This document shows, piece by piece, positions 1,755-43,107 of a stretch of 64,000 nt of DNA; position 1 is the stretch's first letter; the number at the start of each line of letters is the position of its first letter. The stretch is from Eledone cirrhosa. Taxonomy: Eukaryota. The stretch spans positions 409,324,001 through 409,388,000 of the forward strand of contig OZ024740.1 in the NCBI GenBank assembly GCA_964016885.1, written 5' to 3'. The notes beneath the pieces were generated by a model, which was not told the DNA's origin, ran no database searches, and was given only the letters and a program-made list of their open reading frames with translations. Position numbers and translations under genes: made by a program.

Positions 1755-1757
<3 letters not shown>

Positions 1758-3127
1758 TCTTTCAAACCTGATATGGAACTTAAAATGCAAGAATATAGAC
1801 TATTCATTAGCTTGGAAAACAGTTTCAGAAGCACCCGCGTACTGAAACACAGCTTTATCTAGATTCTGTAAATTGTGTATTGATGAAATTTTTTATATAC
1901 TTAACTGTAAAAACTCTATTAATCTAAGAACGAATTTATTTAATTCTTGTAAACATCGCCAGAATTCAATATATAACTTATAATTATACTTATAATAATC
2001 CTATTAATCTCCATAACAATCTCATCTACTTGGTTTTAATATATTGATATCTCTAAATCATAATATATCTAACATTTGCTGTACTTCCACTTCTTAAAAA
2101 TTTTCATATAATATTATAAAATTCTAATTTTTAAATTTTAATTTTAATAATTTTTTATTTCTTTAAAAAATTACTTATCTCTTAAAAAAAATTATTTTTA
2201 TTTAAAAATTAAAAATAAAATTTTCTCAAAATATTTTTTCAAACATTTTATCAAAATTGAAAAAAATTTTTAAAAATATTTTTTCAATATTTTTTCAATA
2301 TTTTTTCAATAGATTAATAACCACTAACTGATTCTGGCTAAATGTATCTTAAACATCCATACTTATTTTGACTAAATAGTCTCACACTAACGAATAAATA
2401 AATAAATTCGGAGTTTTTTCCTTATCTTCCCTTTTCAATCATATAAATATAAATATTATTACTTAACTTAAATTTAATTTTAAATACATATTTATTTACA
2501 TAAAATACAAAACCAATATCTCTCATAACTCATTAGAACAACTATCTATAACATGATATACCCATTTATTTATTCATTTATTTATCTACTTAAAACAGAA
2601 GAAAAACATCACTCGTAACTCATATTATATTATAAACAAATTTTAAACAACTATTAATCGTAAAATATCCTTTTAATATAAATACACATACTATTAAAAT
2701 ATATACTTACATATATACATAGATAATTGTTTGAATATATTTCCCTCAAATTAACGTTATATGAGCTTTTCATTCATCTTCGCTTTTTTCCTTCTCTCTC
2801 TCTCTATTTTGTCCTTCTTCTCTTCTCTCTTCTCTCTCTCACTATCATATATTATATATATAAACTCTCCATAGTCGTTTAAATAAACAGTTGATTTTCA
2901 ATTATTTACATATTCATTTGCATATTCATCCATAAATTTGAAAAATCCATAATACATTTCCACTATCCAGAGAATATCCAACTGATATATTTCTGGGTAT
3001 GGCTCTATTTATAAAGCAAACTTTGTATTTTATCTGAAGAAAGCGTACCAAAGTGTTTTGGTACCCTTGAAATATATATAATAAAATAAATATGGCTTTA
3101 TAAATATAGTTTCCATTTATTTAATAT

Positions 3128-3132
<5 letters not shown>
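1755..3132 (+). mobile_element. Penelope-like element 3' remnant: GIY-YIG C-terminus, very AT-rich 3' UTR, pLTR
   Basis: LSNLIWNLKCKNIDYSLAWKTVSEAPAY*..CKLCIDE..NSCKHR aligns to the C-termini of the PLE ORFs at 46810-47094 and 49640-49850. Ends in an HHR and is flanked by (TA)n. Confidence 0.75.
3026..3088 (+). ncRNA. Type I minimal hammerhead ribozyme
   Basis: tattttat CTGAAGA aag-c-gtaccaaa-gtgt-tttggtac-c-ctt GAAA tatata TA ataaaata. 8-bp stem I and palindromic loop III. Confidence 0.85.
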
Positions 3133-3204
<72 letters not shown>

Positions 3205-7867: not shown

Positions 7868-10814
7868 TTATTGCAGTGCTTCTTTGTAGACAACGTTCCT
7901 GGTATTACCCGGATTACCACAAATATAGAGATTGTGTGGACTGCTGACGCGTGAACATCCGACGTATAGTTGACCTGCTGTGTCAGATTTAGGCCAACTA
8001 CTTGCAGCGACTGTCCCTGTGCCTTGTTGATACATACTCATTGTAAAGCAGAGTTTTACGGGAAACTGCCGTCTCGTAAAATCAAATGGGACGTCAGAGG
8101 GACTAAGGCTTATGGGGGATAATAACTTTGTCCCGCCAGCAGACGGTCCGCTCAGAATTTTTGTCGTAAGAATTCGTGTCCCAATTTTTTTGATGATCAG
8201 ACGCGTCCCGTTGCATAGTTCTGGTGGTTCCACGTTTCTTAGCAGCATAACTGGAACACCAACCTTCAGTCTAAGGTCATGAAGTGGAAGTCCGGGAGGT
8301 TGTTGACTGTTGAGGAATTCAATCGGATAGTTGACGGCGTCGTCCGCGTTTTTGTTGGTGTCAATTGACTTGAAGGAGACTTCACCTCCTGGAATCTGAT
8401 CAAGCAGGTGTTGATTCATTGCGTCAATGGTGGCATTATGTGATGCTAAAATAGCTCTCCCTTGCAGCCAGTTGTGATCAAGGAATCGTGCCTCGAGGTC
8501 TGGGAAAACAGATGACATTAATTCCTCTATGCTTGATACAAAGTTTCCAAACGGCAGACGGATGTGCTGTTCATCGATTCCAGGTGTAGTTCCATTACCA
8601 ACTTCCAGTAGCTGTTTTGAGATATCCTCAGATTCTGCGTCGCCATGCACTCTCATGTTAGTAGTCAGGTTTAGTTTCTGGACATACTGCCATAGGTAGG
8701 AAGACTTGATGCATGCGTTAACTTCGTCAGCTCTAGTGCCTCTAGTGATTACAGGAAGAGTCTGCCGAAAATCGCCAGCCATCAGTACTGTCGCTCCAAC
8801 TATTACGTGTGAATTTCGACGCAAGTCCTTGAGAGTTCAGTCTAGAACCTCAAACGCTGCCTTGTGACTCATTGTAGCCTCGTCCAAAATGATTAAACAG
8901 CACTCAGAAAGAAGGTATCCTTTAGAGTCTCCACGATTTATTCTGCAGGTAGGATTCTCCTTCTTTGCAAGGTCCATAGGCATGCGGAGTGTGCCGTACG
9001 ACCGCCATGTAACAGTGTCGCCGCAATACCACTTGAGGCGACGGCTAAAGCAATCTGCCTGTCTTTCAGTAGGTTTATGAGAAAAGTTTTTCCTGTTCCG
9101 CCTGGAGCATCCAAGAAGAATAGCCGTCCCTCATTTGAAATGACACTGGCAAGAATTCTGTCATACGCCCGTCTCTGCTCAGGCAAAAGTCTGGGTTCAT
9201 CTTGAGCAACCTTATCTGTCAATTCCTCGATGTTGTAATTCAACTTAAGCATGAACTCCACATCTAAAACACCGTCTTTGTGTACAGGTTGTGGCAAACC
9301 GAATTCTAATACACCGCCAACTCCAACAGATCTTAGACGTTTATCCATGTCAATGAGGGCCTCATTGTATACATTGGCGTTGTAATGAAAGACAGCCGCT
9401 GGTGCCCTTGCTCATACTCTACGCAGGATGTCCTCTGACATGTTGTCCTTATGCGTATCCAATAGCTGAAGTGGCTCACCGACATTGCAGAACGGTAACA
9501 TATTGCAAAACAAACGACGCATTTCTTGTGGCATTTTACATTCAGAAGCTTCTTTCAATGCCATGTTCAGGTGGTCATCGTCCTCGAGTAGCCCGCGCTT
9601 CCAGTATTAGAACAGGGGGTTCGCAATGTAAGGGTTTTATTTCTTTTGTTAGAAAACAGTTACCTTTTTTGTTTTGGCATTTCGTAAAATTCTACTGCAG
9701 AATCGATTTCATAAAACAGTACTGTATGATTGTTATAGAATTATTTAAATTTAATATAGAGCAATTGTATTTTAAAAATGAAAATGAAACGTACTGTAGT
9801 AGCCAAAAGTTTATTAACAGCGAAATAACGTTGTCTTTGATATGTTATTTTAAATAAGACAATGAATTGAAAAATACTACTTACTGTTAGTGGTGGTTAA
9901 CATGTATTAGAAATAAAATGAAAATGATATCTGAAAAAACGTACTTGAGAACATAACTCCCTTCTTCGCAATTTAAGGGTTTTATATCTTTTGATGGAAA
10001 ACAGTGACCGTTTTCGGTTTGGCATTTCGTAAAATGGTACTGTATGTTAACAGCGAAAGAACGCTGCGAAAGAACGCAGCGAAATAAATTGATGAGTTTA
10101 AAAATGTGTATGAAATTGTAATTAAGACAATGAATATTGAAAGTAGTAGAACAGGGGGAAATAACTCAATTAGACGTTTATTAGAAGAGGGGGAAATAAC
10201 TAACTCCAGTATTAGAACATGGGGTTCGCAATGTAAGGGTTTTATTTACGGTACTGTATGATCGTTATAGAAGTATTTAAATTTAATATACAGTAACTCT
10301 AATTGAAAAATGAAAATGAAACGTACTGTAGAAGGCAATAGTTTATTAATCTGCATTTTCAAACTTGCATATCACCGACATTGCTATTTCGCTGTTAATA
10401 AACAACGCTTTTTCACGTCGCTCCACTTCTCATTGTATGCCGTCCAACCCCAAGTGCATATTTCTATTCTTTTCTCTGAAACTGCTTCTTTATAATAAAC
10501 TTTCAATAATATTTTTCAAATTATTGGTATTGTATGTTAACAGCGAAAGAACGTTGATGAGTTTAAAAATTTGTATGCAATTGTAAATAAGACAAAAGTA
10601 TTAGAACAGGGGGAAATAACTCACCGAACGCGATAGTTTTAGAGCCCCAGGGACCACATGTTTCAAGTTAGAGATTTGAAACCTCGTCTATTTGCTTCCT
10701 TGGTACTTTTTACATAGGTGTGTAAATTTTCATGTCAGTCCGACCACGTCTACTACCATTTAACTGTGCACATTTGAATTTCAACCACCGCCCATTTCAC
10801 AAATATATATTAGA
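7868..10814 (-). mobile_element. Helitron remnant: 5' terminus, internal subrepeats and frameshifted Pif1-family helicase (Rep domain not seen)
   Basis: FFLDAPGGTGKTFL, AVASSGIAATLL.GGRTAHS, GDFRQTLPV, LCNGTRL, RRQFPVKLCF and GQLYVGCSRV in 7868-9600. A|TCTAATATAT start at 10814. Scrambled repeats at 9600-10620. Confidence 0.88.
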
Positions 10815-16983: not shown

Positions 16984-17074
16984 ACATATTGCATATGTTT
17001 CACTGTCGATCAGTCGAGGAACGATGGATTAATGTTCGATCCTGACTCTGGAGTCGGGAGCTCCTCAGATGTGT
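16984..17074 (-). ncRNA. Hammerhead ribozyme with mutated cleavage site at the end of a probable PLE remnant (to about 17310)
   Basis: Minus strand: acacat CTGAGGA gct..agt GAAA catatg CA atatgt. Loop III is palindromic and U16.1 is changed to C. Confidence 0.6.
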
Positions 17075-17451
17075 GTTCTCACGTGTAGACGCACGTTTAC
17101 ACGTGAGAATACATATCTGAGGGTGATGTGTTGGTGTAATGGTAGCACAGTGGTCTGGATAACCAAAGATGTGGGTTTGACTCCTATGTACGTCAATACT
17201 CATCTTTTCCCATTTCTTAGAGGGTTCTAAACCCCACTTAGTAAAAAAAAATAAGGCGAAAGCTTCTATTTCTAATTTCAAACGCGCTCGCTGTTTCAAA
17301 ACACACTTATTTATATATTTAAGTTTATCCCGGGTTCAATCGGGGGGTAACCACAGTAAGTAAGGTACTCAATACAAAGCAGAGTATACATATTTAATAT
17401 AGAAAAGCTTCTACAGGACTAGAACTGTTTCATTCGTGAGAAATCATCAGG

Positions 17452-17502
17452 AGCTTCCTGATGATTTCTCACGAATGAAACAGTTCTAGTCCTGTAGAAG
17501 CT
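17452..17502 (+). ncRNA. Type I hammerhead ribozyme within fold-back 17396-17512
   Basis: agcttc CTGATGA t-ttc-tcac-gaa-t GAAA CAG-ttctagtc-CTG TA gaagct. A mirror copy lies on the minus strand. Confidence 0.88.
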
Positions 17503-17524
17503 TTTCTATATTATATATATATAT

Positions 17525-24044: not shown

Positions 24045-24249
24045 TTCACATAGGTTAAGATCAGGGTTTCCTCACCTGGGTGATATCGTCCACCGATGGG
24101 CAATTTCACCGATGAGCAGCTGAACAGAAAATGCTGGGTGATTGGAAATTTTGGTAGGCGATATAGGATTTTGAGTGTTAATGTGTTTCAACAAATGCTA
24201 CTCTGCAAAAAAAAAAATCTTTAAATGGGGGTGGTGTGTGGGGGTGGGG

Positions 24250-27200
24250 GCTGCATCGGACCATACTTCTTGTATTTCGATTAATTTGACTGTTTGGGCC
24301 AAATATGTGTCTTCAACTAAAACGTTTTGTTGCTTTTGCAGCTATTGCTGCAAATGTATTGTTATTGTTGTTGCTATTGTTGTTGCTATTGTTGTTGCTA
24401 TTGTTGTTGCTATTGTTGTTGCTATTGTTGGTGCTATTGTTGTTGCTATTGTTGGTGCTATTGTTGTTGCTATTGTTGGTGCTATTGTTGTTGCTATTGT
24501 TGGTGCTATTGTTGGTGCTATTGTTGTTGCTATTGTTGGTGCTATTGTTGTTGCTATTGTTGGTGCTATTGTTGTTGCTATTGTTGGTGCTATTGTTGGT
24601 GCTATTGTTGGTGCTATTGTTGTTGCTATTGTTGTTGCTATTGTTGGTGCTATTGTTGTTGCTATTGTTGGTGCTATTGTTGTTGCTATTGTTGGTGCTA
24701 TTGTTGTTGCTATTGTTGGTGCTATTGTTGTTGCTATTGTTGGTGCTATTGTTGTTACTATTGTTGGTGCTATTATTGTTGCTATTGTTGGTGCTATTGT
24801 TGGTGCTATTGTTGGTGCTATTGTTGTTGCTATTGTTGGTGCTATTGTTGTTGCTATTGTTGTTGCTTTTGTTGGTGCTATTGTTGTTGCTATTGTTGGT
24901 GCTTTTGTTGGTGCTATTGTTGTTGCTATTGTTGGTGCTATTGTTGTTGCTATTGTTGGTGCTATTGTTGGTGCTATTGTTGTTGCTATTGTTGGTGCTA
25001 TTGTTGTTGCTATTGTTGTTGCTATTGTTGTTGCTATTGTTGTTGCTATTGTTGGTGCTATTGTTGTTGCTATTGTTGTTGCTATTGTTGGTGCTATTGT
25101 TGTTGCTATTGTTGGTGCTATTATTGTTGCTATTGTTGGTGCTATTGTTGTTACTATTGTTGGTGCTATTGTTGTTACTATTGTTGTTACTATTGTTGTT
25201 ACTATTGTTGGTGCTATTGTTGTTGCTATTGTTGGTGCTATTGTTGTTGCTATTGTTGTTGCTATTGTTGTTAGTATTGTTGGTGCTATTATTGTTGCTA
25301 TTGTTGGTGCTATTGTTGTTACTATTGTTGGTGCTATTGTTGTTACTATTGTTGGTGCTATTGTTGTTGCTATTGTTGGTGCTATTGTTGTTGCTATTGT
25401 TGGTGCTATTGTTGTTGCTATTGTTGGTGCTATTGTTGTTGCTATTGTTGGTGCTATTGTTGTTGCTATTGTTGTTGCTATTGTTGGTGCTATTGTTGGT
25501 GCTATTGTTGGTGCTATTGTTGGTGCTATTGTTGGTGCTATTGTTGTTGCTATTGTTGTTACTATTGTTGGTGCTATTGTTGGTGCTATTGTTGTTGCTA
25601 TTGTTGGTGCTATTGTTGTTACTATTGTTGTTGCTATTGTTGTTACTATTGTTGGTGCTATTGTTGGTGCTATTGTTGTTGCTATTGTTGGTGCTATTGT
25701 TGGTGCTATTGTTGGTGCTATTGTTGTTACTATTGTTGGTGCTATTGTTGTTACTATTGTTGGTGCTATTGTTGGTGCTATTGTTGGTGCTATTGTTGTT
25801 GCTATTGTTGTTACTATTGTTGGTGCTATTGTTGGTGCTATTGTTGTTGCTATTGTTGGTGCTATTGTTGGTGCTATTGTTGTTGCTATTGTTGTTGCTA
25901 TTGTTGTTGCTATTGTTGTTGCTATTGTTGGTGCTATTGTTGTTGCTATTGTTGGTGCTATTGTTGTTGCTATTGTTGGTGCTATTGTTGGTGCTATTGT
26001 TGGTGCTATTGTTGTTACTATTGTTGGTGCTATTGTTGTTACTATTGTTGGTGCTATTGTTGTTGCTTTTGTTGGTGCTATTGTTGTTGCTATTGTTGGT
26101 GCTATTGTTGTTGCTATTGTTGGTGCTATTGTTGTTGCTATTGTTGGTGCTATTGTTGGTGCTATTGTTGATGCTATTGTTGGTGCTATTGTTGTTGCTA
26201 TTGTTGTTGCTATTGTTGTTGCTATTGTTGTTGCTATTGTTGTTGCTATTGTTGGTGCTATTGTTGTTGCTATTGTTGTTGCTATTGTTGGTGCTATTGT
26301 TGTTGCTATTGTTGGTGCTATTATTGTTGCTATTGTTGGTGCTATTGTTGTTACTATTGTTGGTGCTATTGTTGTTACTATTGTTGTTACTATTGTTGTT
26401 ACTATTGTTGGTGCTATTGTTGTTACTATTGTTGGTGCTATTGTTGTTGCTATTGTTGTTGCTATTGTTGTTACTATTGTTGGTGCTATTATTGTTGCTA
26501 TTGTTGGTGGTATTGTTGTTACTATTGTTGGTGCTATTGTTGTTACTATTGTTGGTGCTATTGTTGTTGCTATTGTTGGTGCTATTGTTGTTGCTATTGT
26601 TGGTGCTATTGTTGTTACTATTGTTGGTGCTATTGTTGTTGCTATTGTTGGTGCTATTGTTGTTGCTATTGTTGGTCCTATTGTTGTTACTATTGTTGGT
26701 GCTATTGTTGGTGCTATTGTTGGTGCTATTGTTGGTGCTATTGTTGTTGCTATTGTTGTTACTATTGTTGGTGCTATTGTTGGTGCTATTGTTGTTGCTA
26801 TTGTTGGTGCTATTGTTGTTACTATTGTTGTTGCTATTGTTGTTACTATTGTTGGTGCTATTGTTGGTGCTATTGTTGTCGCTATTGTTGGTGCTATTGT
26901 TGGTGCTATTGTTGGTGCTATTGTTGTTACTATTGTTGGTGCTATTGTTGTTACTATTGTTGGTGCTATTGTTGGTGCTATTGTTGGTGCTATTGTTGTT
27001 GCTATTGTTGTTACTATTGTTGGTGCTATTGTTGGTGCTATTGTTGTTGCTATTGTTGGTGCTATTGTTGGTGCTATCGTTGGTGCTATTGTTGTTGCTA
27101 TTGTTGGTGCTATTGTTGTTACTATTGTTGTTGCTATTGTTGTTACTATTGTTGGTGCTATTGTTGGTGCTATTGTTGTTGCTATTGTTGGTGCTATTGT

Positions 27201-29225
27201 TGGTGCTATTGTTGGTGCTATTGTTGTTGCTATTGTTGGTGCTATTGTTGTTGCTATTGTTGGTGCTATTGTTGGTGCTATTGTTGTTGCTATTGTTGGT
27301 GCTATTGTTGTTGCTATTGTTGTTGCTATTGTTGGTGCTATTGTTGTTGCTATTGTTGATGCTATTGTTGTTGCTATTGTTGGTGCTATTGTTATTGCTA
27401 TTGTTGTTGCTATTGTTGTTGCTATTGTTGGTGCTATTGTTGTTGCTATTGTTGATGCTATTGTTGTTGCTATTGTTGTTGCTATTGTTGGTGCTATTGT
27501 TGTTGCTGTTGTTGGTGCTATTGTTGTTGCTATTGTTGGTGCTATTGTTGGTGCTATTGTTGTTGCTATTGTTGGTGCTATTGTTGGTGCTATTGTTGTT
27601 GCTATTATTGGTGCTATTGTTGTTACTATTGTTGGTGCTATTGTTGGTGCTATTGTTGATGCTATTGTTGGTGCTATTGTTGTTGCTATTGTTGGTGCTA
27701 TTGTTGGTGCTATTGTTGTTGCTATTGTTGGTGCTATTGTTGGTGCTATTGTTGGTGCTATTGTTGTTGCTATTGTTCGTGCTATTGTTGTTGCTATTGT
27801 TGGTGCTATTGTTGTTGCTATTGTTGTTGCTATTGTTGGTGCTATTGTTGTTGCTATTGTTGATGCTATTGTTGATGCTATTGTTGTTGCTATTGTTGTT
27901 GCTATTGTTGGTGCTACTGTTGGTGCTATTGTTGTTGTTATTGTTGGTGCTATTGTTGGTGCTATTGTTGTTGCTATTGTTGATGCTATTGTTGTTGCTA
28001 TTGTTGTTGCTATTGTTGGTGCTATTGTTGTTGCTATTGTTGGTGCTATTGTTGTTGCTATTGTTGGTGCTATTGTTGTTGCTATTGTTGGTGCTATTGT
28101 TGCTGCTATTGTTGGTGCTATTGTTGTTGCTATTGTTGTTGCTATTGTTGGTGCTATTGTTGGTGCTATTGTTGTTGCTATTGTTGTTGCTATTGTTGGT
28201 GCTATTGTTGTTGCTATTGTTGGTGCTATTGTTGTTGCTATTGTTAGTGCTATTGTTGGTGCTATTGTTGTTGCTATTGTTGTTGCTATTGTTGGTGCTA
28301 TTGTTGTTGCTATTGTTGGTGCTATTGTTGGTGCTATTGTTGTTGCTGTTGTTGTTGCTATTGTTGTTGCTATTGTTGTTGCTATTGTTGTTGCTATTGT
28401 TGTTACTATTGTTGTTACTATTGTTGGTGCTATTGTTGTTGCTATTGTTGATGCTATTGTTGGTGCTATTGTTGTTGCTATTGTTGGTGCTATTGTTGAT
28501 GCTATTGTTGGTGCTATTGTTGTTGCTATTGTTGTTACTATTGTTGTTACTATTGTTGTTGCTATTGTTGTTACTATTGTTCTGCTATTGTTGTTGCTAT
28601 TGTTGTTACTATTGTTGTTACTATTGTTCTGCTATTGTTGTTACTATTCTTGTTCATGCTGTTGTTGTTGCCATTTATGCAGTTCGTGCTTGTGTTGCAG
28701 TTATTTTTGTTGTTTGTTTCTGTTATATTTGTTGTTGTTGTCGGGGTAATGGAGGTAGTGGTGCTGTTAGTGTTTCCACTAGTCTCCTTCTTTTTGTTCA
28801 TTTTATTAATTTGTAGTTTTTGTCATGGTGCTGACGGTATTAAATATTTTTCTCTATCATATATTGTTGTTGTTGTTGCTGTTGGCGATGGTGACAGTGT
28901 TGCTGATGTATGTAGTGGTGTGAGTTACAGTGCTGCAGGTGGTGGTGTGGCTCACGCTATTGTCAACCTTTGTTTGACATGACTTTTTCGCTGTTTTGGT
29001 TGGATATGGAGGGGAGGTGCCGCTCATATAATTAAAAATTTTTAAAATGTTGTGGGTGTATTATGCAAATATAATAGCAATATTTGGGCACAAGGTCAAA
29101 ACATTATGGAGTTAACTTTTCTGGGAGCAATGCACGGCACCCTATTTACATTTTGTAACTAAACAAAATCCGTTTTAAAAACAGGTGAAAATGACAAACC
29201 TACAGGAGCCGACTCGATGTTTGAA
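24250..29225 (-). pseudogene. Second LINE 5' UTR and ORF1 N-terminus, hosting the giant minisatellite
   Basis: KVDNSVSHTTT matches KVDNSVTPITI at about 23197. The 5' motif ggctcc.gta.gtttgtc is shared. The repeat runs into NNTFAAIAAKA. Confidence 0.7.
24358..28645. repeat. 12-bp minisatellite (gctattgttgKt)n, about 350 units, with higher-order duplication
   Basis: Direct inspection. Lines 25081-25860 recur nearly identically 1200 bp later. Confidence 0.98.
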
Positions 29226-29785: not shown

Positions 29786-30040
29786 TGCCCTACTACATAT
29801 ATACACGTATACACACATATATACATATACATACATATATATATACACATATATACACACATATACGTGCAGGTACACGCACATACAGGGGGCGGTGGAA
29901 CCGGGAGGGGGGGGGGGGCCTCCCCATAATTATATTTCTCTCCCAAAACTACCAAAACACATCTATTTGTATATGTGCTACAATTTATGTACATGTTATG
30001 TAGAGACAGATGGGATATATCTATCTATCTATCTATCTAG

Positions 30041-31840
30041 AGATGGTAGGGTGTAAACCTGGCTTCGATGGGGCCCTGCTCAGCTTGGATCAGTCTAAGG
30101 CTTTCGATAGGGTTGACCATCGTTACCTGGATGCGGTGCTCGAGGCGGCAGGCTTCGGACCCGTGTTCAGGGGCTGGATTGCTGCAATGCACAACAGCAA
30201 CATCTGCTCAAGGGTCCAGGTGAACGGCTACCTCTCGGAGCCGTTCCATTTCACGCGATCCATTCGACAGGGATGCCCTCTCTCCTCCCTCCTGTACGTA
30301 CTGACTCTCGAACCACTACTGCGGAAGTTGGAACTATTGCAGGGCATCCCTCTGAAACCGGGACTGTGGAAAGCGGCGTCGCCTACGCCAACGACATGAC
30401 AGTAATGGTGTCGAGCGCCTCGAAAATCGAGGAAGTCGGCACCTTACTAAAGGAATACGAAAGGTTTACAGGAGCGAAGCTGAACCGGGACAAGTCCATC
30501 GGTTTGCAACTCAGATCGTGGAGAGGCAAACCGATGCCTTTCGATGGCGTCGTCGGACGCTGGACGGAAGGACCGGTAAAGCTGCTCGGGGTCTGGTTTG
30601 GTCCGGACCTCCAGGTGGAGAAGAACTCGAACGAGGTGACGGCCAAGGTGTTTGCACTCACCCAGAAGTGGGCTGAGTGCAAACTATCCTTGAAAGGTCG
30701 AGCGGGGGTGGCGAACACTTTTATAGCGTCCTTCATCTACTACCGCTTGACCATCGTGCCTTGTCCAGCCAAAACGCTCACCAAAATGGAGCGCGCGCTC
30801 TTCCAATTCCTTTGGAAGAGGCAGGCTCCTTTGGTAAGAAGATCCATCTGCTGCCAACACCTTTCCAACGGAGGGCTGGGGATGCCATGGCTGATGATGC
30901 GCAAACACGCGCTCAAGCTGCGGCATCTCTACGTATTTCTCACCGGACAACCGGTGTGGGCCCCGTTCGTGAGGCGAGCCTTCCCATGATTCGTCTCACT
31001 GACCGAGCTGCAGTCCTGGGTCAAGCAAAGGCCGAGGAAAATGGGCGACTGGCACATCGAATGTGATCAGGCGCTCACAGCCCTCTGGCAGGCGGACCCG
31101 GCGATCAGTGGAGACTCCACTTCGTCATTCTACAGAGGGTTGGTCCACAGCAAGTGCGACGACGCGCTCGGTGAAACTCTAGGCGTAGAGGAAGACAAAC
31201 TGGCCAGTCTGTTCGGTAGGACCTTCCGCCCGGGACCGATAGACAACTTCCAAAAGTCCCTGGCCTGGCAGTGCTACCGAGGACCTCTACCAGTTCGAGA
31301 CAAGCTCTACAGACATGGGCGCCCGGGCATGGACCCTGCAAAAAAGATCTGTCCAAGGTGCGTGGGAGACGAAGAAACCCTCGCGCACGCATTCATATAC
31401 TGCCCGGGCGTTACCGACCTGTGGGGCTATGTAGAACGACTATTATCGCGGGTGCGACCTATCCGGTTGACCAGCGAGTCCATTGTGATGATCAAACCGC
31501 CACCCTCCTTCAAAAATGAAGGAAAGGTGGTTTTCCTTTGTGTGATAGCTATGGCGAAAGAGGTTGTATGGTGGACAAGGTTGAAAGGGCTGAGGTCAGA
31601 CATCTTTCTCTCCGACCAACAACTGATTCTTCTTTTCAAATACCACTTTGGAAGAAGAATCAGGATAGAGAGAGAGGTGCTGCACCCCATCAAGTTTTAT
31701 GAAAGGTGGGTGAAAGTGGCGAGAATGGCCCGAGTGAATGAGCCTTCTCTCTATATCAGCCTGTAGGTTGAGGAAAAAGAGGAGGAGAGGAAAGGGGTAC
31801 AAACTCTTTGTACTCCTGGAGATGAGGATTGCACATTTTT
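30041..31840 (+). pseudogene. 5'-truncated L1/Tx1-type LINE ORF2 (RT + C-terminal CCHC finger), frameshifted
   Basis: LDQSKAFDRVDH, IRQGCPLS, AYAND, GGLGMP and CPRC..EETLAHAFIYC. ORF ends at 31766. Confidence 0.92.
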
Positions 31841-31849
31841 TTCGGGGGC

Positions 31850-34265
31850 TGCTGACCGGTGAGGAATACCTGGAGGTGCCGTAGCCTTAATGCCTGTTTA
31901 CGCATCGTCATCCACGGCATCCCCAGCCCTCCGTTCGAAGGGTGTTGACCCTGGGCGAGTGCAAACACCTTGCCCGTTACCTCGTCCCAGTTTTTTCCGG
32001 TCCGAACCAGACCCCTAGCAGCTTCACCGGTCCCTCCGTCCAGCATTCGACGATGCCGTCGGAGGGCATCGTTTTGCCCCTCCACGTCCCGAGTCGCAAA
32101 CCGACGGACTTGTCCCGGTTCAGCTTGGCTCCTGTGAACCTTTCATATTCCTCCAGTAAGGTGCCGATCTGCCCGATTTCCGAGGCGCACGACACCATTA
32201 CTGTCACGTCATCGGCGTAGGCCGACACCGCTTTCCGCAATCCCGGTTCCAAGGGGATGCCCTGCAACAGCTCCAGCTTCCGCAGTAGTGGCTCGAGAGC
32301 CAGCACATACAGGAGGGAGGAGAGAGGGCATCCCTGTCGGATGGATCGCGTGATTTGGAACGGCTCCGAGAGGTAGGCGTTCACCTTGACCCTCGAGCAG
32401 GTGTTGCTGCTGTGCATTGCAGCAATCCAGCCCCTGAAAACGGGTCCGAAGCCTGCCGCCGCGAGCACCGCATCCAGGTACCGATGGTCAACCCTATCGA
32501 ACGCCTTAGATTGATCCAAGTTGATCAGGGCCCCACCAAAGCCGGGTTCGTTCCCTACCCTCTCTACGATGTATCACATGAGGTGGAGGTTGTCGTGTAT
32601 GGACCTGGACGGGATTGCGCATGTCTGCGCTTGTCCCACCAGGTTCCCGACGAAAAGCGCCAACCTCTTCGCTAACACCTTGGCCAAAATCTTTAACTCT
32701 GTGTTTAGCAGAGTTATGGGCCTGAAGTTATCTCTGTCATCCCCCTTGTTCTCGTCCTTCCTCACCAGCGTGACTACGCCCTTGGTCACAGAACTGGGAA
32801 TTCTCCCGTTCTGTTGCCAGTTGCAGTAGACCGCCTCGAGGAGACCCGAGAACAAGCCCGGCATCGCTACATAAAGTTCGTATAGTAGACCCGGAGATTT
32901 GCGTTTGCCGCAATGGCTCAGCGCTTCCCCTATTTCAGCGGCTGAAATCGGCCTCTCGCAGGTCTTCGCCTCCCCGTCCGAGAGCCGCGCCAGACCGTCG
33001 AGGTATGGACCGAAATCCATGGCCCCACCCGGCCCGCCGCCCCTCCCGAACAGTCGTGCAAAGCGCCGTTGAAAGGCCGCGCTCATCCGCTCAGGTTCAA
33101 GGATCACGCGTCCATCCTGGTCCTTCAAAGACCGAATCGTGGACTTGTTTCCACTTTTTGCCTCTGTCACTCGGGCCCAGCTAACAGCTTTGGCTCCCTC
33201 GTTACCCAGAGCACGTATTTTACTCCTGACAACGCAGCCGTCGTGCTCCGCATCAAAGAACTGGTCTAGGGCCGTTCTTGACGCCAGCACGCCGGCCACG
33301 TTGCCACTCCTAATCGCCTCGTCTACTTTATTTATTAATTCCTTTTCAGTTCTATTCCTATCTGATGCTAATTCCCGACTAAAACCTATCGATTCTATTC
33401 TAATTTCTCTCTTAAGAGAGCCCCACCACCTGCTGTTGACAATTGACCCGTCAAACGCTGCTTAACTAGTGTGCTAATCCGCTTACTGTAAGCTTTGTTT
33501 GTCGGTAAAGACAAGTTTAGCTTCCTGTAACCGGGTCCCTGTCTATGAATTCTATCAAGGTTGACCACTCCGGTCACCAACTTGTGATCCGAATAGTCAA
33601 CCATGAACATTCGTGGACAGCTTAATATGTCCCTATCCTTATTTCTAACTAGGAACCTCTCTAGGTACGACCTAGATGTTCCGCTGCGATTAGTCCACGT
33701 CCGACAGTGGCACAGTCGGAAAATCTAGTCGATATCTATCGGCCAGATCAAATCGGCCGATTAATCGTTTGAGGCTGTTACACCCCCATCTATCGGGACA
33801 TGCTCCTACATAGTCCCAACGTGCATCCAGGATACCATTCCAGTCCCCCACTAAAAGCAAGGAGCGAGACGTTCCCAGGAAATTCTCCAGGCGTCGGAAG
33901 AAGTCCGGTCGCGGTGTCCCAAATGGGGCATACGCTGCCACCAGCCTGAAAGCTCCACCTTCACCACTGCCGACCTCTAAAACCACCAGTCGACCCTCCG
34001 GGTCCAGGTGTACCTTCTGTGTGGCAAGACCCAGGTATTTTCGCAGCAGAACGATAACCCCACCCCCACCCCTCGGCTGACAGAGAGATGCGTAGATCTC
34101 AAAGTCGTCGAAGATGGGGGCCAGTTGGCGCTCGCTGCTGATCCTGGACTCGCAAATAACCATTACATCCACTCTGTGCGACCTGAGGTCATTTAAGAGT
34201 TTGCCCTGTTTCCAGGACATCCCCAGGCCGCGTGCATTCACACATCCAACTCTTATATTGGCCAT
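31850..34265 (-). pseudogene. L1/Tx1-type LINE ORF2: APE endonuclease + RT, 3'-truncated, frameshifted
   Basis: MANIRVGCVNARGL, GDWN, SDHKLV, FRPITLLNTELKILAK, DQSKAFDRV, QGCPLS, YADD. Confidence 0.93.
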
Positions 34266-34289
34266 GTTGGTGCTGAAGAGTTAAAAAGG

Positions 34290-36345
34290 AAGAGGAAAGG
34301 AAATTACTTACCTCTTCGTCTCCTGGGAACCAGGCTACACAATTTCCATGGGGGTGTTGGAAGGGTTGTTTAGTGGGGTGGTGGTTTGTGGAGGGAGGAC
34401 ATCAGTGTGTGGTGGGATTAGGGTGTTTGGTGGGGTGTGGTTGTCTGGTGTGGGGTGGGGAATCATCTCAATAGGACGTGGTTAAATGGTTTGGTGCAGT
34501 TGGTCCCCACATGCATTGGATGGTTCTTTTCCAAAGTTACATAGGTTTCCGTTGGGACCCTAATCATCATTAGGTGCGGTTTGTTCGCTGCGTAGGTGAA
34601 AGTGATCCCTTCGGTTTCCACCGAAGGGTTATTTTCTATTGCTTTCATCAAAGTTTTATTGTTCTTGTTAATGTATGTATAGAGTTTTTGTTGTGTTGTG
34701 TTTGTTTTTGTTTGTTGTTCTTGTGCGTGTTTGCGTTTTGTAGTATGTGTTATGTTTTGGGGAGGGGTGGGTTTTTTTGTTTGTGATGTTTGTTCTGTTT
34801 GTGCTGGTGGTTGTGTGTTTGTAGCATTTTTGTTAATGTGGTGCCTTTTTTTTTCCTTTTCACCTGTTGAAAGGGTTCTCCCCCGTCGTCACTGGGTGAC
34901 GTTGATACGGAGTCCTCTTCCGTATTGTTGGGCAGGGGTATATTTTGGGGTTTTGTTGTGGTTGCTTTTGTATTTGTTTTAGGTGAGGAGGGGTTGGGTG
35001 GAACAGTGTTTTGTGTTGTTATTTTTCCGTGTTGTTGTTGTTGTTGTTGTTGTTGTTATTGTTGTTGTTGTTGTTGTTGTGGTGGTGGTGGTGGTGGTGG
35101 TGGTTGTGTTGTTGTGTTCGGGGTTGGCAGAAGAGCCTTTTTTTTTACTCGTTAATTGAGGACAGGCAGCCCTCAGGTGACCCCTGCTTAAGCAGTGGTA
35201 ACATGACGGCCGCCTTCCTTCCACTGAAATGTTTATATAAGTTAGCCCGTCCAGAGGCACGCGTTGTGGGATATTCGCTATTCGTTCTGGGCTCATTTGC
35301 ACCAGAACTTCTACGCTGGTCCCACCAAATACACCCCCGGAGGACTTTCCTATTGAAATTATCTTGTCTTCATCAAAGTCAATGATTCCACATAGTATCC
35401 ACCAAATATTTACATTTGGTGTGATACTCATTATTTTTATTCTTTGTGTCCTTTTTCCCCTGTATGTGGGGAAAAAGGTGAAGCGGGGGGACACAATGGG
35501 TGATGCCGAGTATTTTTGTGCTGTTGACTGGTTGTTAATTAGCACCGAAATGCTACCAAACAGTTTACCTTTTTGTATGAAGGTTATGCCCTTCATTGCA
35601 TCTTTTAGAACCAGCTCAATTTCATTTTGTGATAATTGAGCTGGTTTTCTTGTTTCGTTCGATATTGTCCTGAAAACGACAGTTTTCAGGACAGCCTCTC
35701 TACGTAATTCCTGTGGAGAATTGATGCTAAAAGCACCGTTTTCGCCAAAAGCCACGAATTGTTTTGCGTCTTGTAATAGTTATTTAGCATTTGTTATGTT
35801 TATTGGCGTGTATAGTTCGTTTTTTTTTACAGTCTGTGCGAATGTTGTTTTGGTGTTGTTGTCTTTTTTATTGCTGCTGTTGTTGTCACTGTTGGTAATA
35901 TTGTTCATGTTTTCCTTGGTGTTGCTATTGTTGCAATTGTTGGTTGTGGTGTTATTGTCATTGTTCTTGTTGTTGGTGGTGGTATTATTTACCGGGTTTG
36001 GTTTCGTGGTTTCAATATTTTCAACGTTTTTCGATAATGCGAGGGGGAAGGCTGCAAGCTTTGTACTCATACCTTCCCTCCACCACTTTTCTTAGTGTGC
36101 GTGGCACTCACGACAGAGTGCGAAGTGGAAATGGCATCCATTGCTGAATACCAAGTCTACACAGTTTTGAGATGAAAATGAAAATTTCGCCCCAGAAAGG
36201 GGCGAAAATTAGTTGACTGAACGTCTGACGGCCCAGGCAAGGGGTTAACTAAACAATGCTATTAAATTGAGCAATGAACTCACAGTTTTTTTTGACAATA
36301 ATCCATAAAAATCCGGAGCGAAGTAATTCACGTCTATATCAAGTG
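34290..36345 (-). pseudogene. LINE 5' UTR and ORF1 with Asn/Thr-rich regions and a gag-type zinc knuckle
   Basis: CYHCLSRGHLRAAC (CX2CX4HX4C) in ORF 34979-35755, directly upstream of ORF2. Confidence 0.85.
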
Positions 36346-36715
36346 GTAATTGATATAGAGAGGAATATTGGAAGAGAATTCCGTGTAATAGATATATAGA
36401 GCGGGAGAATTTGGTGTTAATTGATATAGAGAGGGGGATTGGAAGAGAGTTCCGTGTAGTCGATATAGAGAGAGTGCCGCGTAGTCGATATAGAGAGGGT
36501 GAGAGTTTTGGGTGATTGATATACAGAGGGAAATTAGGAGAGATAAGTGTAGATATGTATAGAGAGTGAGAGAATGTAATAGTCGTAGATATAGAGAGTG
36601 GGATAAGAGAGGTGGTGTCGTTGTAAATATAGAGAGGGGTAGAGTTTGGTTTTAGTAGATACAGAGAAGGGGATTAAAAGAGAGTTTTGTGTGATAGAGA
36701 GGAGGAGAGTTTGGT
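36345..36715. repeat. Degenerate tandem repeat of gatatagagag-containing units (about 30 bp)
   Basis: Recurrent (a/t)gatatagagag..gagagtt motif abutting the LINE 5' end. Confidence 0.7.
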
Positions 36716-37239
36716 GGCACTCTCGGGTCCCAAATAACAGGAGAGGTAGCATTAATAAGGGGTCTTGGGACATCAGTAGTTGTATAGTATACGTTCGTAA
36801 ATATGGGATTTCTTGTAATGTTTTTCCTTTGTCATATATAATGTTTTTTTAATGTAAAATAAATTTATTATTAGATTCTCCAGCTGCTGTATCAATATGA
36901 ATCACTTACAATAAAATTTCGCTGGAGATAGATTAGCAAAGTTTAATAAGCGGGTTAGGAGTGGGGTGGAATAAAAACCGAGCGAGTGTGTAGAAAAATC
37001 TGACAAATTAATAAGTGGGGGCGGGGACGATTATTCAAGACATGAGAGTACGTGAATTATTGACGGACGTAAGAATGGAAACTCAATACTGAAGTAGAGT
37101 TTACATATTCATTTATTATAGCTAAGCTTGTTACTCTGGAGTCTCACCTGCGTACTCACCAGAGAGGACTGGTGATCCTGTGAGTGCGCAGGTGAAATTT
37201 TAGAGTAACAAAGCTCACCAATAGCCATAATAAATGAAA

Positions 37240-37282
<43 letters not shown>

Positions 37283-37862
37283 GTTATACTTGAGGGTCAT
37301 ATTGTTGTAATAATGGTTTCTTATATAGGCACAAGGACAGTAATTTGGGGGGAGGGGAAAGTCGATTAAATAATTGATTGACTAACGGTTATATATATAT
37401 ATATATATATATATAGAATAAGGAAAAGCGAAGTAGTTTCAGATGTTCAAGTTCTTTAATAATAATTGTTTCTACTTTAGGCACAAGGCCAGCAATTTCA
37501 TTACTGGTACTTTATTTTATCGACCCCGTAAGGATGAAAGGCAAAGTCAACCTCGGCGGGATTTGAACTCAGATCATAAAGGGACGTAACTATGCTGGAA
37601 AGTATGGCGTCCGACCCTCTACCGATACTGCCAATCCACCGCCCTTTAATAATTGTTTCTATTTTTGGCACAAGGCCAGCGATTACCCAGTGCATTACTG
37701 GTACTTTATTTTATCGACCTCGTAAGGATGAAAGGCAAAGTTAACCTCGGCGAGAATTGAACTCAGAATGGCAAGGGCCGTAACTCTATGCGTCAAAGCA
37801 TGGCGTCCGACCCTCTACCGATACTGCCAATCCACCGCCATCCACCGCCCTTTAATAATAAT

Positions 37863-37936
37863 GCTGTGATATATATTTCAGTGACGACACTGGCCACACT
37901 GTTCTGTGTGCGAGTGTCGTGTCATCATCAGACAGC
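37863..37936 (-). ncRNA. Type I minimal hammerhead ribozyme
   Basis: Minus strand: gctgt CTGATGA tgac-[long hairpin]-gtca-ct GAAA tatata TC acagc. Confidence 0.8.
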
Positions 37937-37991
37937 TTGTTACATAATAAGGTTATGTTTCCGAGGCAATCCAAATTGGATCGAAATGGGA

Positions 37992-38069
<78 letters not shown>

Positions 38070-38352
38070 CCGTTAGTCAATCAATGATAAACGTTGATTG
38101 CCAAATAAATTAGATACAGAAGAGAAAACCAACCAAACAGTGAGTGTGTTCTATTATTATTTCTGGCAATATTATTACAATATGGAGGGCGGTGTATTGG
38201 CAGTATCGGTAGAGGGTCGGACGCCATCTTTGCAGCATAGAGTTACGGTCTTTATGATCTGAGCTCAAATCCCGCCGAGGTTAATATATATATATATATA
38301 TGAATGTACGTGTTGTATATTTAAAAATATACTGTATGTTTATTTTAAAACA

Positions 38353-38417
38353 TTTTGAAAGCTTTTCGCTATGAATTTAAGGTAGTGACTATAGTCACAT
38401 ATCTAGCTTCAGCAAAA
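38353..38417 (-). ncRNA. Hammerhead-like motif with shortened core
   Basis: Minus strand: ttttg CTGAA gcta..tagc GAAA agct TT caaaa. All stems are present but the GA of CUGANGA is missing. Confidence 0.45.
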
Positions 38418-38518
38418 ACAAAGGGAAATAACCGACGAACGTTTCTCGCTGTTAAGCGGTTATCAAAGTTATATATCAATCTGCTTCTATAGCTCAGATA
38501 GCAAACATTATATATATA

Positions 38519-38746
38519 CAGTGGTGGTGGAACTAGGGAGGGGGCTGTCCCCCCCCCCCATAGTTATATTTTCTCTCCAAACTACCAAAACACACATCTA
38601 TTTGGATATGCGCTACAATTTATGTACATATGTTTATCGCCTATCGAAGTTTTCTGACCCTTTTAGATTGCTAAGAGCTTAACTAATCACTACAACTAGA
38701 GTGTCCAAATTTGCCTTAAGATTCAGAAATGCTTCCAACACCCCTG
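38519..38746. mobile_element. MITE with imperfect CAG(G/T)GG(C/T)GGTGGAA TIRs in TA-rich sites
   Basis: Reverse copy at 60852-61084, partial copies at 29886-30000 and about 16080-16170. Confidence 0.7.
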
Positions 38747-39858
38747 CATGTACATACATATACATGCATACAAGGATAAAAACATATATACATACATACG
38801 GATAAGATATACATACATATACATATATAAATGTGTCTACTTTTGGCACAAGGACAGCAAATACCCCAATGTATTATTGGTGCTTTATTTTATTAATCCC
38901 ATAAGGATGAAAGGCAAAGTTAACTTTGACGGGATTTGAACTCAGGTCATAAAGGGCCGTAACTCTATGCTGCAAAGCATGGCGTCCGACGTTCTGTCGA
39001 TACTGCCAATGGTATAAAGATAGAATGTTCTTAGCTAGCACATCATAACGTATATTATCAGCATATTGTCTGTACTACCCGTTAGGATGTCGGGCTGTAA
39101 TGCAAGAAAGTTCTATACAATTTGTGCTTATAATTTCGGCTTGAAAGCACAAAACTTTCTTGTATAAACCTTTCTTGTATTACAGCCCGATTGGCAGTAT
39201 CGGTAGAGAGTCGGATGCTATGCTTTGCAGCACAGAGTTACGACCCTTTACAGTCTCAGTTCAAATCCCACCGAGGTTAACTTTGCCTTTCATCCTTACG
39301 GAGTCAATAAAATAAAGCACCAGTAATACATTGGGGATGGTGCTGGCCTTGTGCCCCAAAAAGTAGAAACAATTATATCCCAACGGATAGTACGGACAAT
39401 AACGTATCATATACGTTATGATGTGGTAGCTAAACACATTCTATCTTTATACCGCGGTGGATTGGCAGTATCGGTGGAGAGTCAGACACCATGCTTTCCA
39501 GCATAGTTACGTCCCTTTACGGGGTCGATAAAATAAAGTACCAGTAATGCACTGGGTAATTTGCTGGCCTTGTGCCTAAAGTAGAAACAATTATTTATAT
39601 CAGCAGTGGGCGGTGGATTGGCAGTACCGGTAGAGGGTCGGACGCTATGCTTTGACGCATATTGTTACATCCCTTGCCATTCTGAGTTCAAATCCCGCCG
39701 AGGTTAACTTTGCCTTTCATCCTTACGCGGTCGATAAAATAAAGTACCAGTAATGCACTGGGACGTGGTATGACTTTATCTTACATCGTATACACACAAT
39801 ATATATATATATACATACACATATATACATATATACATATATATACACATATACACAT

Positions 39859-39901
<43 letters not shown>

Positions 39902-39931
39902 CGTGTGTGTGTGTGTGTTTGGACGTATATG

Positions 39932-39976
<45 letters not shown>

Positions 39977-40329
39977 ATGTGTATATGTGTATATATATGT
40001 ATATATGTATATATGTGTATGTATATATATATATATATTGTGTGTATACGATGTAAGATAAAGTCATACCACGTCCCTAACAACTTTGTACTAGCCACAG
40101 TCTGTAAAATAGATTCTCTGAATCTGTCTGTAAATATCGCTGTTAGTCTAGCTATGAGAATCTTTTCTGTGATTCAACTCCAGCAGTTAATGGAATATTG
40201 CTGTGGTCTCTACCACAAGTCTATGGTTGGGTATAATCATCCCCATATCTCTTCTTTAATTAACACAGTATTCAATTTAAACCATTTAGGTCAATAAATA
40301 GCTCTATAAGTTTACCATTGTGAAGACAG

Positions 40330-40845
40330 GTGCGTCGTTGAATCTCCTTAAGAATTACGTTACGGGTAAGCACATTGTGGAATGCTCAGCTACTGAGATG
40401 CCTGGAGTCCCTGGATGCCGGTTCTGGTGGGCAGCTGTTGAAGAACTGCCTGGTTGCATGTGCGGCCCCCTCACAGCCACCGGACACGCCGACACCCAGT
40501 TGCACCGGACTAAGCTCCTCACCCAGTTCAGGTGTGATGAACCTGCAGACCACCTTAGCAGCCAACCTCCGGAAGACATTGCCCACAGCAATGGGACGTA
40601 TGCCACCCTCTTCCTTCCTGAGGGCGGTCAGGCTAGCCGAAAAAAAGAGGCCTCGGGTGTGAGGGTCCAGGACGCCATGGATGAGCCTATTGGTGAGTGC
40701 CACAATTGCATTCAGAAGGCAGCGCCTGGCCTCAGCGGAGAGGTGGCCAGGTCGGAGACCATCAGCACCTCCGCTGCTACTAGCTGGGAAAGACTTGATG
40801 GCAGACATGATGTCTGCGTCGGAAGCCACAAGAAGCAGCTACTTG
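40330..40845 (-). pseudogene. CRE-clade non-LTR retrotransposon RT N-terminal fragment
   Basis: SSGGADGLRPGHL..LTALRKEEGGIRPIAVGNVFRRLAAK..PVQLGVGVSGGCE. Confidence 0.85.
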
Positions 40846-41631
40846 AACGTTAATTTCACAAGTAGGTTAATCCATTGAATGAACAACTAGAACACTCGTT
40901 GTTGGAGCTAACCAAGTAATAACAAAAGTTTTTCATTACTAGTTACACCCTCTTATTTTTCAAGATCAAATCACATCAAGAATGACTTTAATTTTCATTT
41001 ATCTAAGGTCAATTAAATAAGAGCCAATGAAGTTGTGGGATGGAAGAGATATGTGGCTTAGTATATTACAAGTCACCTTTATCGATTGTATAATAATTGC
41101 TGTTGTGTACATATTTAGTGTCACGTGAAGCATTCCGGCTGATGCCAAACATCTTTCTATATATTGCATAACTATAAAACTTACCTAACTATAAGAATGA
41201 CGGATATTTCGAATTTTTCTGGAAAATAATTTGATCTTTTTTTATTGTTTAACGGGAGAGGGAAGCAAATAACCACCGAAATTGGTTGAGGGAAAGAGAG
41301 AAGAACGGAGGGAGAAGAGAAGCTATCATGAAACCTGTCTCGAATGCTTGCAACAGACAACCAGGTGATGTTAAACTGTCGACGGATTAAGTCTACTATC
41401 CAAGTATGTTGTAGCGGGATTTGAACTCAAAACGCAGAGAGCCGGATTAAATATCACAAATAGTTTCGTCATACGTTCTAGTGTTTCTACTAGTTCCCCA
41501 CTCTGATGTTTAAAGAATATAGTCGTGCTGAGTAATTTTTAAAATCTGCTCATATAACATTACGTATAATATTTATTATTCTTGTATATACAACATGTTG
41601 CACACACACACACACGCGCGCACGCACACGC

Positions 41632-41700
<69 letters not shown>

Positions 41701-42137
41701 GGCCTACTGGCCAGGTGGCCAGGCTGCCCAATGGCAAGTGAGCCCCAGGGGATCCACAGTAGCATTGCAGAGCCCACTGTAGTATTTTAGGGGCCAATGC
41801 TTTGCTTTCAAAAAATACCTGAAATCTAAGAGAAAGAACAAAATGTTTAAAAAAATAAATAAAACAATTAAGCAAAGCATTTGGTCAACCAATTCCCCAG
41901 GGATTTACTAGAAACCAAAATATACGATACTGCAAATAGCTGGAATCAGTGGTTGTACATTCTACTAAATCTAAAGCTTAGTGTATTCATTCATGCATGC
42001 CTCGTACATATATAGACACACACACAAGCATATGTATATATATATATATTTATATACTTACACAAGAACTATTGACCACATAATATTTGGTATCAATGGG
42101 TTAAAGACATCAGTCAAATCAATTAGTGGTGAAGCTG

Positions 42138-42218
<81 letters not shown>

Positions 42219-42399
42219 AAACAGTATGACCCCGACGGCAGGGCTCAAGCCGTTTCGACGGCTATTTCTGGACTCCAGAAATAGCCGTCGAAACGGCTTG
42301 AGCTCTGCCGTCTGGGTCATACTTTTTCCTGTCCTACCCAAAGTATTGAGTACTCTGGTGCGTTATGGTATATCTGGTTCCTTACCACAATTCCTTCGT

Positions 42400-42430
<31 letters not shown>

Positions 42431-42537
42431 ATAATAATAAATTTGAAGACTAAAATCCAAAGAGGGCTCGATAAGGATAAATATATATCAAATATATAAG
42501 AACCGTAGAGCAAATATTTATTAAAATAACAGATTAA

Positions 42538-42726: not shown

Positions 42727-42813
<87 letters not shown>

Positions 42814-43020: not shown

Positions 43021-43052
<32 letters not shown>

Positions 43053-43107
43053 CGAAGGAATTGTGGTAAGGAACCAGATAGACCATATACGTATATATAT
43101 ATATATA

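Follow-up and report, generated by a model that had tools for sequence, protein, structure and literature searches.

How does a retroelement come to leave behind two copies of its own front end, joined head to head and devoid of any reading frame? The question is raised by a 64,000-nucleotide stretch of the genome of Eledone cirrhosa (contig OZ024740.1; hereafter the window, whose numbering is used throughout except for sampled loci), in which several palindromic inserts occur. A first-pass annotation had attributed them to the pLTRs of Penelope-like elements (PLEs), and rightly so: to judge from their sequence, they are ORF-less, head-to-head pLTR remnants of Hydra-type PLEs. They are real and abundant, and belong to a known kind of PLE insertion; indeed, the inverted 5' pLTR, which the same annotation had called an established feature, is borne out by published PLE insertions, in which an inverted pLTR truncated at its 5' end occurs together with a tail on one side (PMC8557442, PMC3846280), and a promoter within the pLTR is likewise known (in the literature compared, which includes PMC2377424). 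As to the origin of the inverted pLTRs and one-sided tails, a paper of 2013 proposed self-priming on an antisense RNA, and a paper of 2024 left the later steps unresolved.

The palindromes of the window

Inverted repeats are present at all six places where they had been reported, and the six insertion sites are TA-rich, as claimed; the palindromes are real, but they are not the short symmetric units described, being larger and asymmetric, with a tail of 70-100 nt on one arm. Folding, which covered four of the six, gave for 17396-17512 a perfect stem of 57 bp closed by 3 nt of loop (z -22.9 against shuffles) and z values of -15.7, -25.6 and -19.0, likewise against shuffles, for 61352-61459, 42514-42663 and 42216-42330; 198 pairs of complex inverted 14-mers lie no more than 120 nt apart in the window, and none in any of 10 shuffles. 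The grouping into four families also holds, with the palindromes at 17396 and 61352 in family A, that at 42512 in family B, that at 60643 in family C and those at 42228 and 51722 in family D.

The family A insert at 17320-17523 has a long arm on the minus strand (17320-17451), which covers the pLTR from about +5 through the hammerhead core and the tail to the distal end, and a short arm on the plus strand (17452-17513), whose proximal end lies in a TA run; at the junction, read on the plus strand, a G at 17451, likely cap-derived and matching the other arm too, stands directly before the inferred +1 A (17452), a geometry which is that of the commonest family A junction (reference locus L011). 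The second family A insert (61269-61477) is composed of a minus-strand long arm from 61269 to about 61397, a 5-nt filler and a plus-strand short arm reaching +2. Both arms of the family B pair (42426-42664; long arm minus, 42426-42588; short arm plus, 42590-42664) reach the inferred +1, with a single extra G at 42589 between them, while in the family C pair (60547-60845) the long arm (minus, 60547-60720) starts inside stem II and the short arm (plus, 60721-60845) carries a complete hammerhead motif with its core at 60737. At 42214-42401 a family D short arm (minus, 42214-42274) reaches +1 and adjoins a long arm (plus, 42274-42401); at 51711-51877 the short arm (minus, 51711-51751) and the long arm (plus, 51749-51877) share a microhomology of 3 nt; a seventh pair, also of family D and missed by the first-pass annotation, spans 1353-1534 and contains a 38-nt filler. 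Among the short-read records listed, none bridges a window junction with 31 nt on both sides; other head-to-head joints, formed by elements of families A and B, are numerous in short-read contigs and raw reads, some of the latter from a second study, so that the palindrome class exists outside the assembly.

Between 42214 and 43087, four PLE-end insertions of families D and B lie within 900 nt, each in a TA run left by another. There, at 42675-43023, some 150 nt of (TG)n and filler interrupt the centre of a head-to-head pair of family D; on the other side of a TA run from the long end of this pair lies a D tail fragment of 38 nt (43050-43087), with which it forms a tail-to-tail palindrome (42986-43087). 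The window also holds a 4.5-kb array of a 12-nt unit (24195-28700), open in several frames on both strands; two tRNA-like matches above the Rfam gathering score (17125-17195 and 53843-53915), possibly SINE heads, the former adjoined by a 25-bp inverted repeat (17063-17122); and a perfect 32-bp inverted repeat with a 17-nt loop (56564-56644), without a second copy in the window. Three further stretches we take, by resemblance, to be a PIF1-like helicase fragment as in Helitrons (7868-9411, minus strand), a decayed L1/Tx1-like LINE (30004-34280) and a mariner-like transposase fragment (43242-43982, minus strand).

The parent elements

Exact motif matches in the 3.0-Gb genome number 31,535 for family A, 33,569 for family B and 45,105 for family D, and 78 for family C, for which one narrow pattern was used. 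Family B is represented in the window by a decayed full-length element (44490-47889, plus strand), with an interrupted RT and GIY-YIG ORF and a 3' pLTR that ends in (TA)n; the inferred +1 of its 5' pLTR lies at 44546 and the ATG at 44753. Of family C the window contains the 3' end of an element (1756-3140, plus strand), made up of an endonuclease remnant, the 3' UTR and a pLTR with an initiator-like site near 2963 and a hammerhead core at 3034. As in EN+ PLEs, the pLTR of family B flanks the RT and GIY-YIG ORF as a direct repeat, at 44490-47889 and in the sampled loci L219, L216, L198 and L230, and the family A pLTR lies upstream, preceding a 758-codon open frame in locus L178. The pLTRs of families C and D are found 0.75-1.3 kb downstream of related ORF ends. 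The statement that the four families are unrelated does not survive these comparisons: the ORFs of A and B are 51% identical, the ORF ends that precede the pLTRs of C and D share 38-47% identity with the ORF of A or B, and on these identities families A-D are related PLEs.

The A and B proteins carry RWR, DKT, YRDD, CxCx5C, YIG, CxxC and CxH. According to PMC8557442, motifs of this kind are diagnostic of the (TA)n-targeting Hydra clade, of which its supplement includes a cephalopod member, Hydra-1_Obim; RW[KR], DKT, the CxCx5C linker, CxxC, CxH and the C-terminal GIY-YIG are shared with the clade, as are (TA)n targets and hammerhead motifs. Despite this likeness, which is one of motifs, RWR stands here in place of RWK, full elements measure about 3.4 kb against generally less than 3 kb in that paper, and families B and D differ by their non-canonical ribozyme cores. 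The Pfam GIY-YIG model gave a weak match to the family A ORF (E=0.019, below the cut-off) and none to the family B ORF, and nothing was found by Pfam in six ORF fragments of the window. The tetranucleotide TATA lies within 6 nt after the long ends in 61 of 81 cases in family A, 57 of 70 in B, 84 of 96 in C and 115 of 121 in D; target duplications are unreadable in (TA)n.

An apparently intact family A copy (L178:4465-6784, minus strand) starts 5 nt before the inferred +1 and has its likely start codon about 180 nt after it, which would make it useful for in vitro work. Within the window, a second decayed Hydra-like PLE ORF fragment (48220-49880; RT end, linker and GIY-YIG) is distinct from A and B, and the family B ORF is interrupted by an insertion of about 150 nt (45440-45593), whose left part recurs beside other PLE ends at several loci.

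Hammerhead motifs

The presence of hammerhead ribozymes (HHRs) in the palindromes, as proposed by the first-pass annotation, holds in part: families A and C have the core CUGANGA...GAAA, three stems and an NUH site, and are predicted type I ribozymes, whereas in families B and D the canonical CUGANGA core with stem II is not found. The family A motif, whose stem I starts at the inferred +1 and whose predicted cut falls after +45, lies at 17452-17502 (plus strand) in the window, with stem I at 17452-17457/17497-17502, CUGAUGA at 17458-17464, GAAA at 17477-17480 and the predicted cut after 17496; the exact core is present in 85 of 116 arms. The three-stem form is its minimum-energy fold, and a weak one (z 0.0); in an alignment of the motif 91% of cells are paired, with 15 two-sided changes, all in stem I and between subfamilies, a number matched by 0 of 500 shuffles, which is not a probability since the copies are related. 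The family C core was recognized by motif inspection only. In family B the family form is CAGAAGA where CUGANGA would stand, and stems I-III can be made out by eye; it may be a natural variant of the core, a candidate for assay. Family D keeps GAAA, stem III and GUC, but neither the CUGANGA core nor stem II. Instead of the expected CUGA, both families have the non-canonical start CAGAA, for instance at 44551 (family B) and 42276 (family D).

The Rfam hammerhead models gave no match at E<=1 in the window and none at E<=10 in two short stretches, and only microRNA-like matches were returned by Rfam on hairpins and microsatellites. In a transcript of the whole palindrome, the long hairpin is predicted to outcompete or hide the ribozyme fold (predicted energies of -97.6 and -7.7 kcal/mol, respectively). 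Further CUGANGA...GAAA motifs occur in other repeat families at 62465, 63147 and 14925 (plus strand) and at 62825, 37931 and 14624 (minus strand). Hammerhead pairs on opposite strands have been described before in PLE remnants, 100-700 bp apart, and were put down to truncated PLEs (PMC4209133); in comparison with those, family A has a 4-bp stem III of the monomeric type and a stem I that begins at the inferred +1, and the passages of that paper considered here give no mechanism for the formation of such pairs.

Long and short arms

The arms were analysed in 260 loci (1.5 Mb) fetched around pattern matches; for families A, B and D they come mainly from one contig (C1), within its first 22 Mb, and for family C from many contigs. 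Arms were aligned to real reference copies, junctions could be split in a refined way for 186 of the 238 pairs, and a few pairs are segmental duplicates. The outer ends of the arms are bimodal in all four families, and 206 of the 238 head-to-head pairs combine a long with a short arm, the others being long and long (4), short and short (3) or with an unclassed arm (25). The two alternative ends bound a tail of 70-100 nt, against 30-40 nt in published EN+ PLE units (PMC8557442, PMC3846280), and the pairing matches the two known RT start sites: purified PLE protein has been reported to cut and extend both strands of AT-rich DNA, and reverse transcription to begin at two internal sites bounding the tail, on an RNA that was uncleaved (PMC11167929). 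A non-LTR retrozyme, made of head-to-tail hammerhead units (10.64898/2026.07.22.740005), was rejected as an identity for the inserts, all seven pairs of the window and the 238 sampled ones being head-to-head.

The first-pass annotation had ascribed the inversion to a reverse transcriptase that stalls, or reaches the end of its template, at the folded ribozyme and then switches strand; in other words, one cDNA would fold back and copy itself. Such a process allows the long arm to be the farther-reaching one, as is the case in 38 of the 135 long/short pairs with 5' ends 5 nt or more apart. The short arm is the farther one in the other 97, and in these the arm that stops earlier carries tail sequence which is absent from its partner; moreover, 38 of all 238 pairs have arms sharing no more than 8 nt. 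Since in a fold-back the farther arm must be the template and contain all of the other arm, the process is ruled out for the pairs in which the short arm is the farther one, where the tail is present only on the would-be copy-back arm; together with the barely overlapping pairs, this excludes a strand switch by a single RT for most pairs, and two priming events are therefore needed.

Whether the two primers use one RNA or two is a separate matter. Two separate RNAs, one per target strand, each copied to its 5' end and then joined, would account equally well for the long and short arms and for the extra G described below, and the PLE protein is predicted to be a dimer (PMC11167929); the arms themselves speak for a single template. 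At 30 of 30 loci with the commonest family A junction the same loop-II variant is found in both arms, despite the presence of six variants, and arms are more alike within than between loci in every family (0.956 within against 0.879 between in A, 0.947 against 0.911 in B, 0.973 against 0.923 in C and 0.964 against 0.891 in D), so that one RNA template is favoured; the bias towards a farther-reaching short arm also fits a shared template, and two RNAs appear unlikely. The likeness within loci could alternatively reflect one dominant master at a time, or gene conversion.

The inner boundary

The 5' ends of the arms stop at an initiator-like A. Single arms end within a 20-nt window around the inferred +1 in 104 of 185 cases (A), 42 of 160 (B) and 153 of 250 (D), against 4, 18 and 10 ends in the 90 nt upstream and 2, 1 and 7 no more than 5 nt from the cleavage site, while a further 38, 51 and 13 arms read through beyond -120; in these counts arms cut further 3' are under-sampled, because the search patterns are located towards the 5' end of the pLTR, a position which causes no under-sampling of ends upstream of +1. 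In the refined family A pairs the farther arm ends within -9 to +1 of the core C in 37 of 44, ends of A2 type being unscorable further up because references of that type end 8 nt short of the core; in the A1-only subset the farther-arm ends lie at -11 to -4 in 18 of 22. Family C has its boundary at ACTATCC, about 80 nt before the core, and the farther arms of 60 pairs end at -92 to -65 in 31, beyond in 1, at -64 to -21 in 17 and at or after -20 in 11; the ends are spread over about 70 nt, in part because some of the references were short. Ends far upstream of +1, which need longer, read-through templates, occur in 7 of the 33 pairs of family B and in 2 of the 52 of family A. Two apparent clusters were discarded: a family D peak at -11, produced by an inverted repeat that naturally surrounds +1, and 33 family C arms ending near the cleavage site, for which most of the 42 rows inspected were false matches to TA repeats or the family A promoter; about 30 false matches are included in the 256 single family C arms.

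The breakpoints, once mapped along the pLTR, are thus non-uniform, as the first-pass annotation had supposed, and its placement of the junctions in or just 5' of the HHR describes the six copies of the window, where they fall in the motif or no more than 16 nt from it. Three families (A, B and D) have their boundary at the 5' strand of stem I, and a few junctions use stem-I complementarity as microhomology, all of which would suit a stall at the folded ribozyme or a run-off at a cleaved end. A stall is, however, expected on the 3' side of the fold and not at its 5' tip; family D keeps the same boundary without a canonical core; few junction ends come as close as 3 nt to the cleavage site (A, 1 of 88 arms; B, 0 of 54; D, 4 of 164); and family C breaks some 80 nt upstream of the ribozyme, with only the 11 of 60 farther arms at or after -20, which argues that the boundary tracks the likely RNA start and not the ribozyme. 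Of the two stops originally envisaged, the end of the template is thus retained and the stall at the ribozyme is not, and a single stalled, self-copying cDNA is a quite improbable source of the palindromes.

The initiator-like A is accompanied by a TATA box 30-33 nt upstream in two of three family A references and by a TATA-like box at -29 in one family D reference; no clear TATA box was found in the family B or C references. Where an arm ends exactly at +1, the base before it is usually G, the element itself having C or T there. Genome-wide, 1,841 family A matches have a base other than C before +1 and 380 of these have A or T, so that 1,461 (79%) have G; by hand count, a control end at +5 has 3 G among the first 100 of 423 matches listed, family B has 58 G, 29 A and 13 C among the first 100 of 1,893 matches listed, and among the first 100 of 514 matches listed for family C, 27 copies are truncated and 17 of these have G. 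In the local sample the extra G is present in 23 of 32 cases against 66 of 324 (p=5e-9); for family D the extra base could be scored only as G or A, because C and T both match the reference at -1. Several rows show the G between (TA)n and +1, or a lone G between two arms which both reach +1, as at 42589. Some of the extra Gs may have been templated by the other arm, and 4 of 75 G rows in family A fit stem-I microhomology.

An extra G at the 5' junction is known to mark capped, full-length L1 inserts (PMC11702581), and by analogy we infer that the G is here the mark of a copied cap and that the pLTR RNA would start, and be capped, at the initiator-like A; the commonest family A junction can then be read as one in which the cap-derived C supplies a microhomology of 2 nt. 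Alternatively, the boundary could be a splice acceptor, with the G plus AG derived from the end of an upstream exon: in families A, B and D a pyrimidine-rich tract is followed by AG at +1 and +2, and the D. virilis Penelope has an intron that extends to the 5' end of helix I (PMC4209133). The G is nevertheless preceded by the other arm or by (TA)n instead of a constant exon sequence, and the family C boundary shows the same G without AG, so a splice acceptor is hardly credible. As little weight can be given to self-priming on an antisense transcript, the model by which similar palindromic junctions of rotifer Penelope elements were interpreted (PMC3846280); it is opposed by the extra G, which precedes a sense-strand initiator-like A in four families, and by the outer ends, which match two fixed start sites of the sense strand.

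Mobility of the hairpins

That the hairpins are MITE-like and mobile in their own right, amplified as non-autonomous units, was the last suggestion of the first-pass annotation, which had named identical junctions at many loci as its sign. Such a junction was indeed found, at 197 places for family A, and the families count 30,000-45,000 exact motif matches. In the 30 of these 197 loci that were fetched (two of them probably a local duplicate), the arm reaching +1 is the long one in 17, the short one in 12 and unclear in 1, and six variants are represented; because of both arm orders and the six variants, the commonest junction appears to have formed recurrently and not to have spread as a mobile unit. 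Elsewhere the refined junctions are mostly distinct (41 of 44 in A, 23 of 27 in B, 33 of 33 in C and 71 of 82 in D), and the ends of the inserts are not inverted repeats. A MITE or foldback DNA transposon was accordingly rejected on the asymmetric ends and heterogeneous junctions of the inserts and the occurrence of one junction in both orders; mobility of the hairpins as units is not supported and is extremely improbable.

A proposed mechanism

What the inserts show, namely arms paired as long with short, a 5' boundary that is sharp, an added G, short microhomologies or fillers and variants that agree between the arms, points to a sense-strand run-off by two primers. Probably, each palindrome is a single insertion made of two head-to-head copies of the front end, for which the two strands of a (TA)n break primed on one sense RNA. 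This RNA would be started by the promoter of the pLTR at the initiator-like A, a base that would also open hammerhead stem I in families A, B and D, and the RNA would serve as template uncleaved at the ribozyme. The RT would bind the copy of its own start region near the 5' end of the RNA, so that only 60-200 nt would be copied, and both strands of the break would prime on the same molecule, one at each internal start site. The upstream (short) primer would usually reach the cap and add a C opposite it, the downstream (long) primer would follow and often stop earlier, and the two cDNA 3' ends would be joined through 0-5 nt of microhomology or a filler. The palindromes would thus be by-products of insertion, made anew each time.

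Parts of this scheme have precedents. PAc, a Poseidon element of Anolis, has in common with it two internal RT start sites bounding the tail, the extension of both strands, an uncleaved RNA and AT-rich cleavage (PMC11167929); it belongs to the Poseidon clade and is not Hydra-type, and the parts of that paper considered here contain neither head-to-head products nor a map of 5' junctions. LINE-1 twin priming also has both break ends priming cDNA, joining by microhomology and a cap-marking extra G (PMC11702581), but L1 copies adjacent, mostly non-overlapping RNA segments from the poly(A) end, whereas here primers at fixed internal sites 70-100 nt apart would copy overlapping sequence, and for this reason the product would be a palindrome. 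With the EN+ PLE insertion units of PMC8557442 and PMC3846280 the inserts share the head-to-head inverted pLTR, a tail on one end, the palindromic junction, AT-rich targets and TATA and initiator-like pLTR motifs; unlike those units, the whole insert consists here of two pLTR fronts without an ORF, in thousands of copies, and junctions at one initiator-like base with an extra G are absent from the parts of the two papers that were compared. The present data point to sense-strand double priming, as opposed to the antisense self-priming of PMC3846280. No paper was found that maps PLE inversion junctions to a capped start or derives them from two primers, in a search of openly readable papers and preprints.

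A broader proposal, for which the chances seem to us evenly balanced, is that double priming is obligatory in PLE integration: a dimeric protein would use both strands of a (TA)n break, at two fixed sites, on one capped sense RNA, a single reaction would yield both the tail and the inverted pLTR that characterize PLEs as a class, the palindromes would be its strong-stop products and the extra G would map the transcription start. If this is true, the start of transcription of each family can be located from genomic DNA by its extra G, and in three of the four families it would be the first base of the hammerhead.

The value of the scheme lies in offering a testable mechanism for a step of PLE transposition, thousands of natural products providing base-level predictions of the RNA starts, the two RT start sites, the primer that reaches the end and the uncleaved state of the ribozyme. 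Extrapolation from 20 tight pairs among the first 100 of the 31,535 matches listed gives about 6,000 family A hairpins; for the annotation of such genomes, these abundant hairpins would have to be regarded as by-products of insertion and not as MITEs, microRNA genes or new ribozyme devices.
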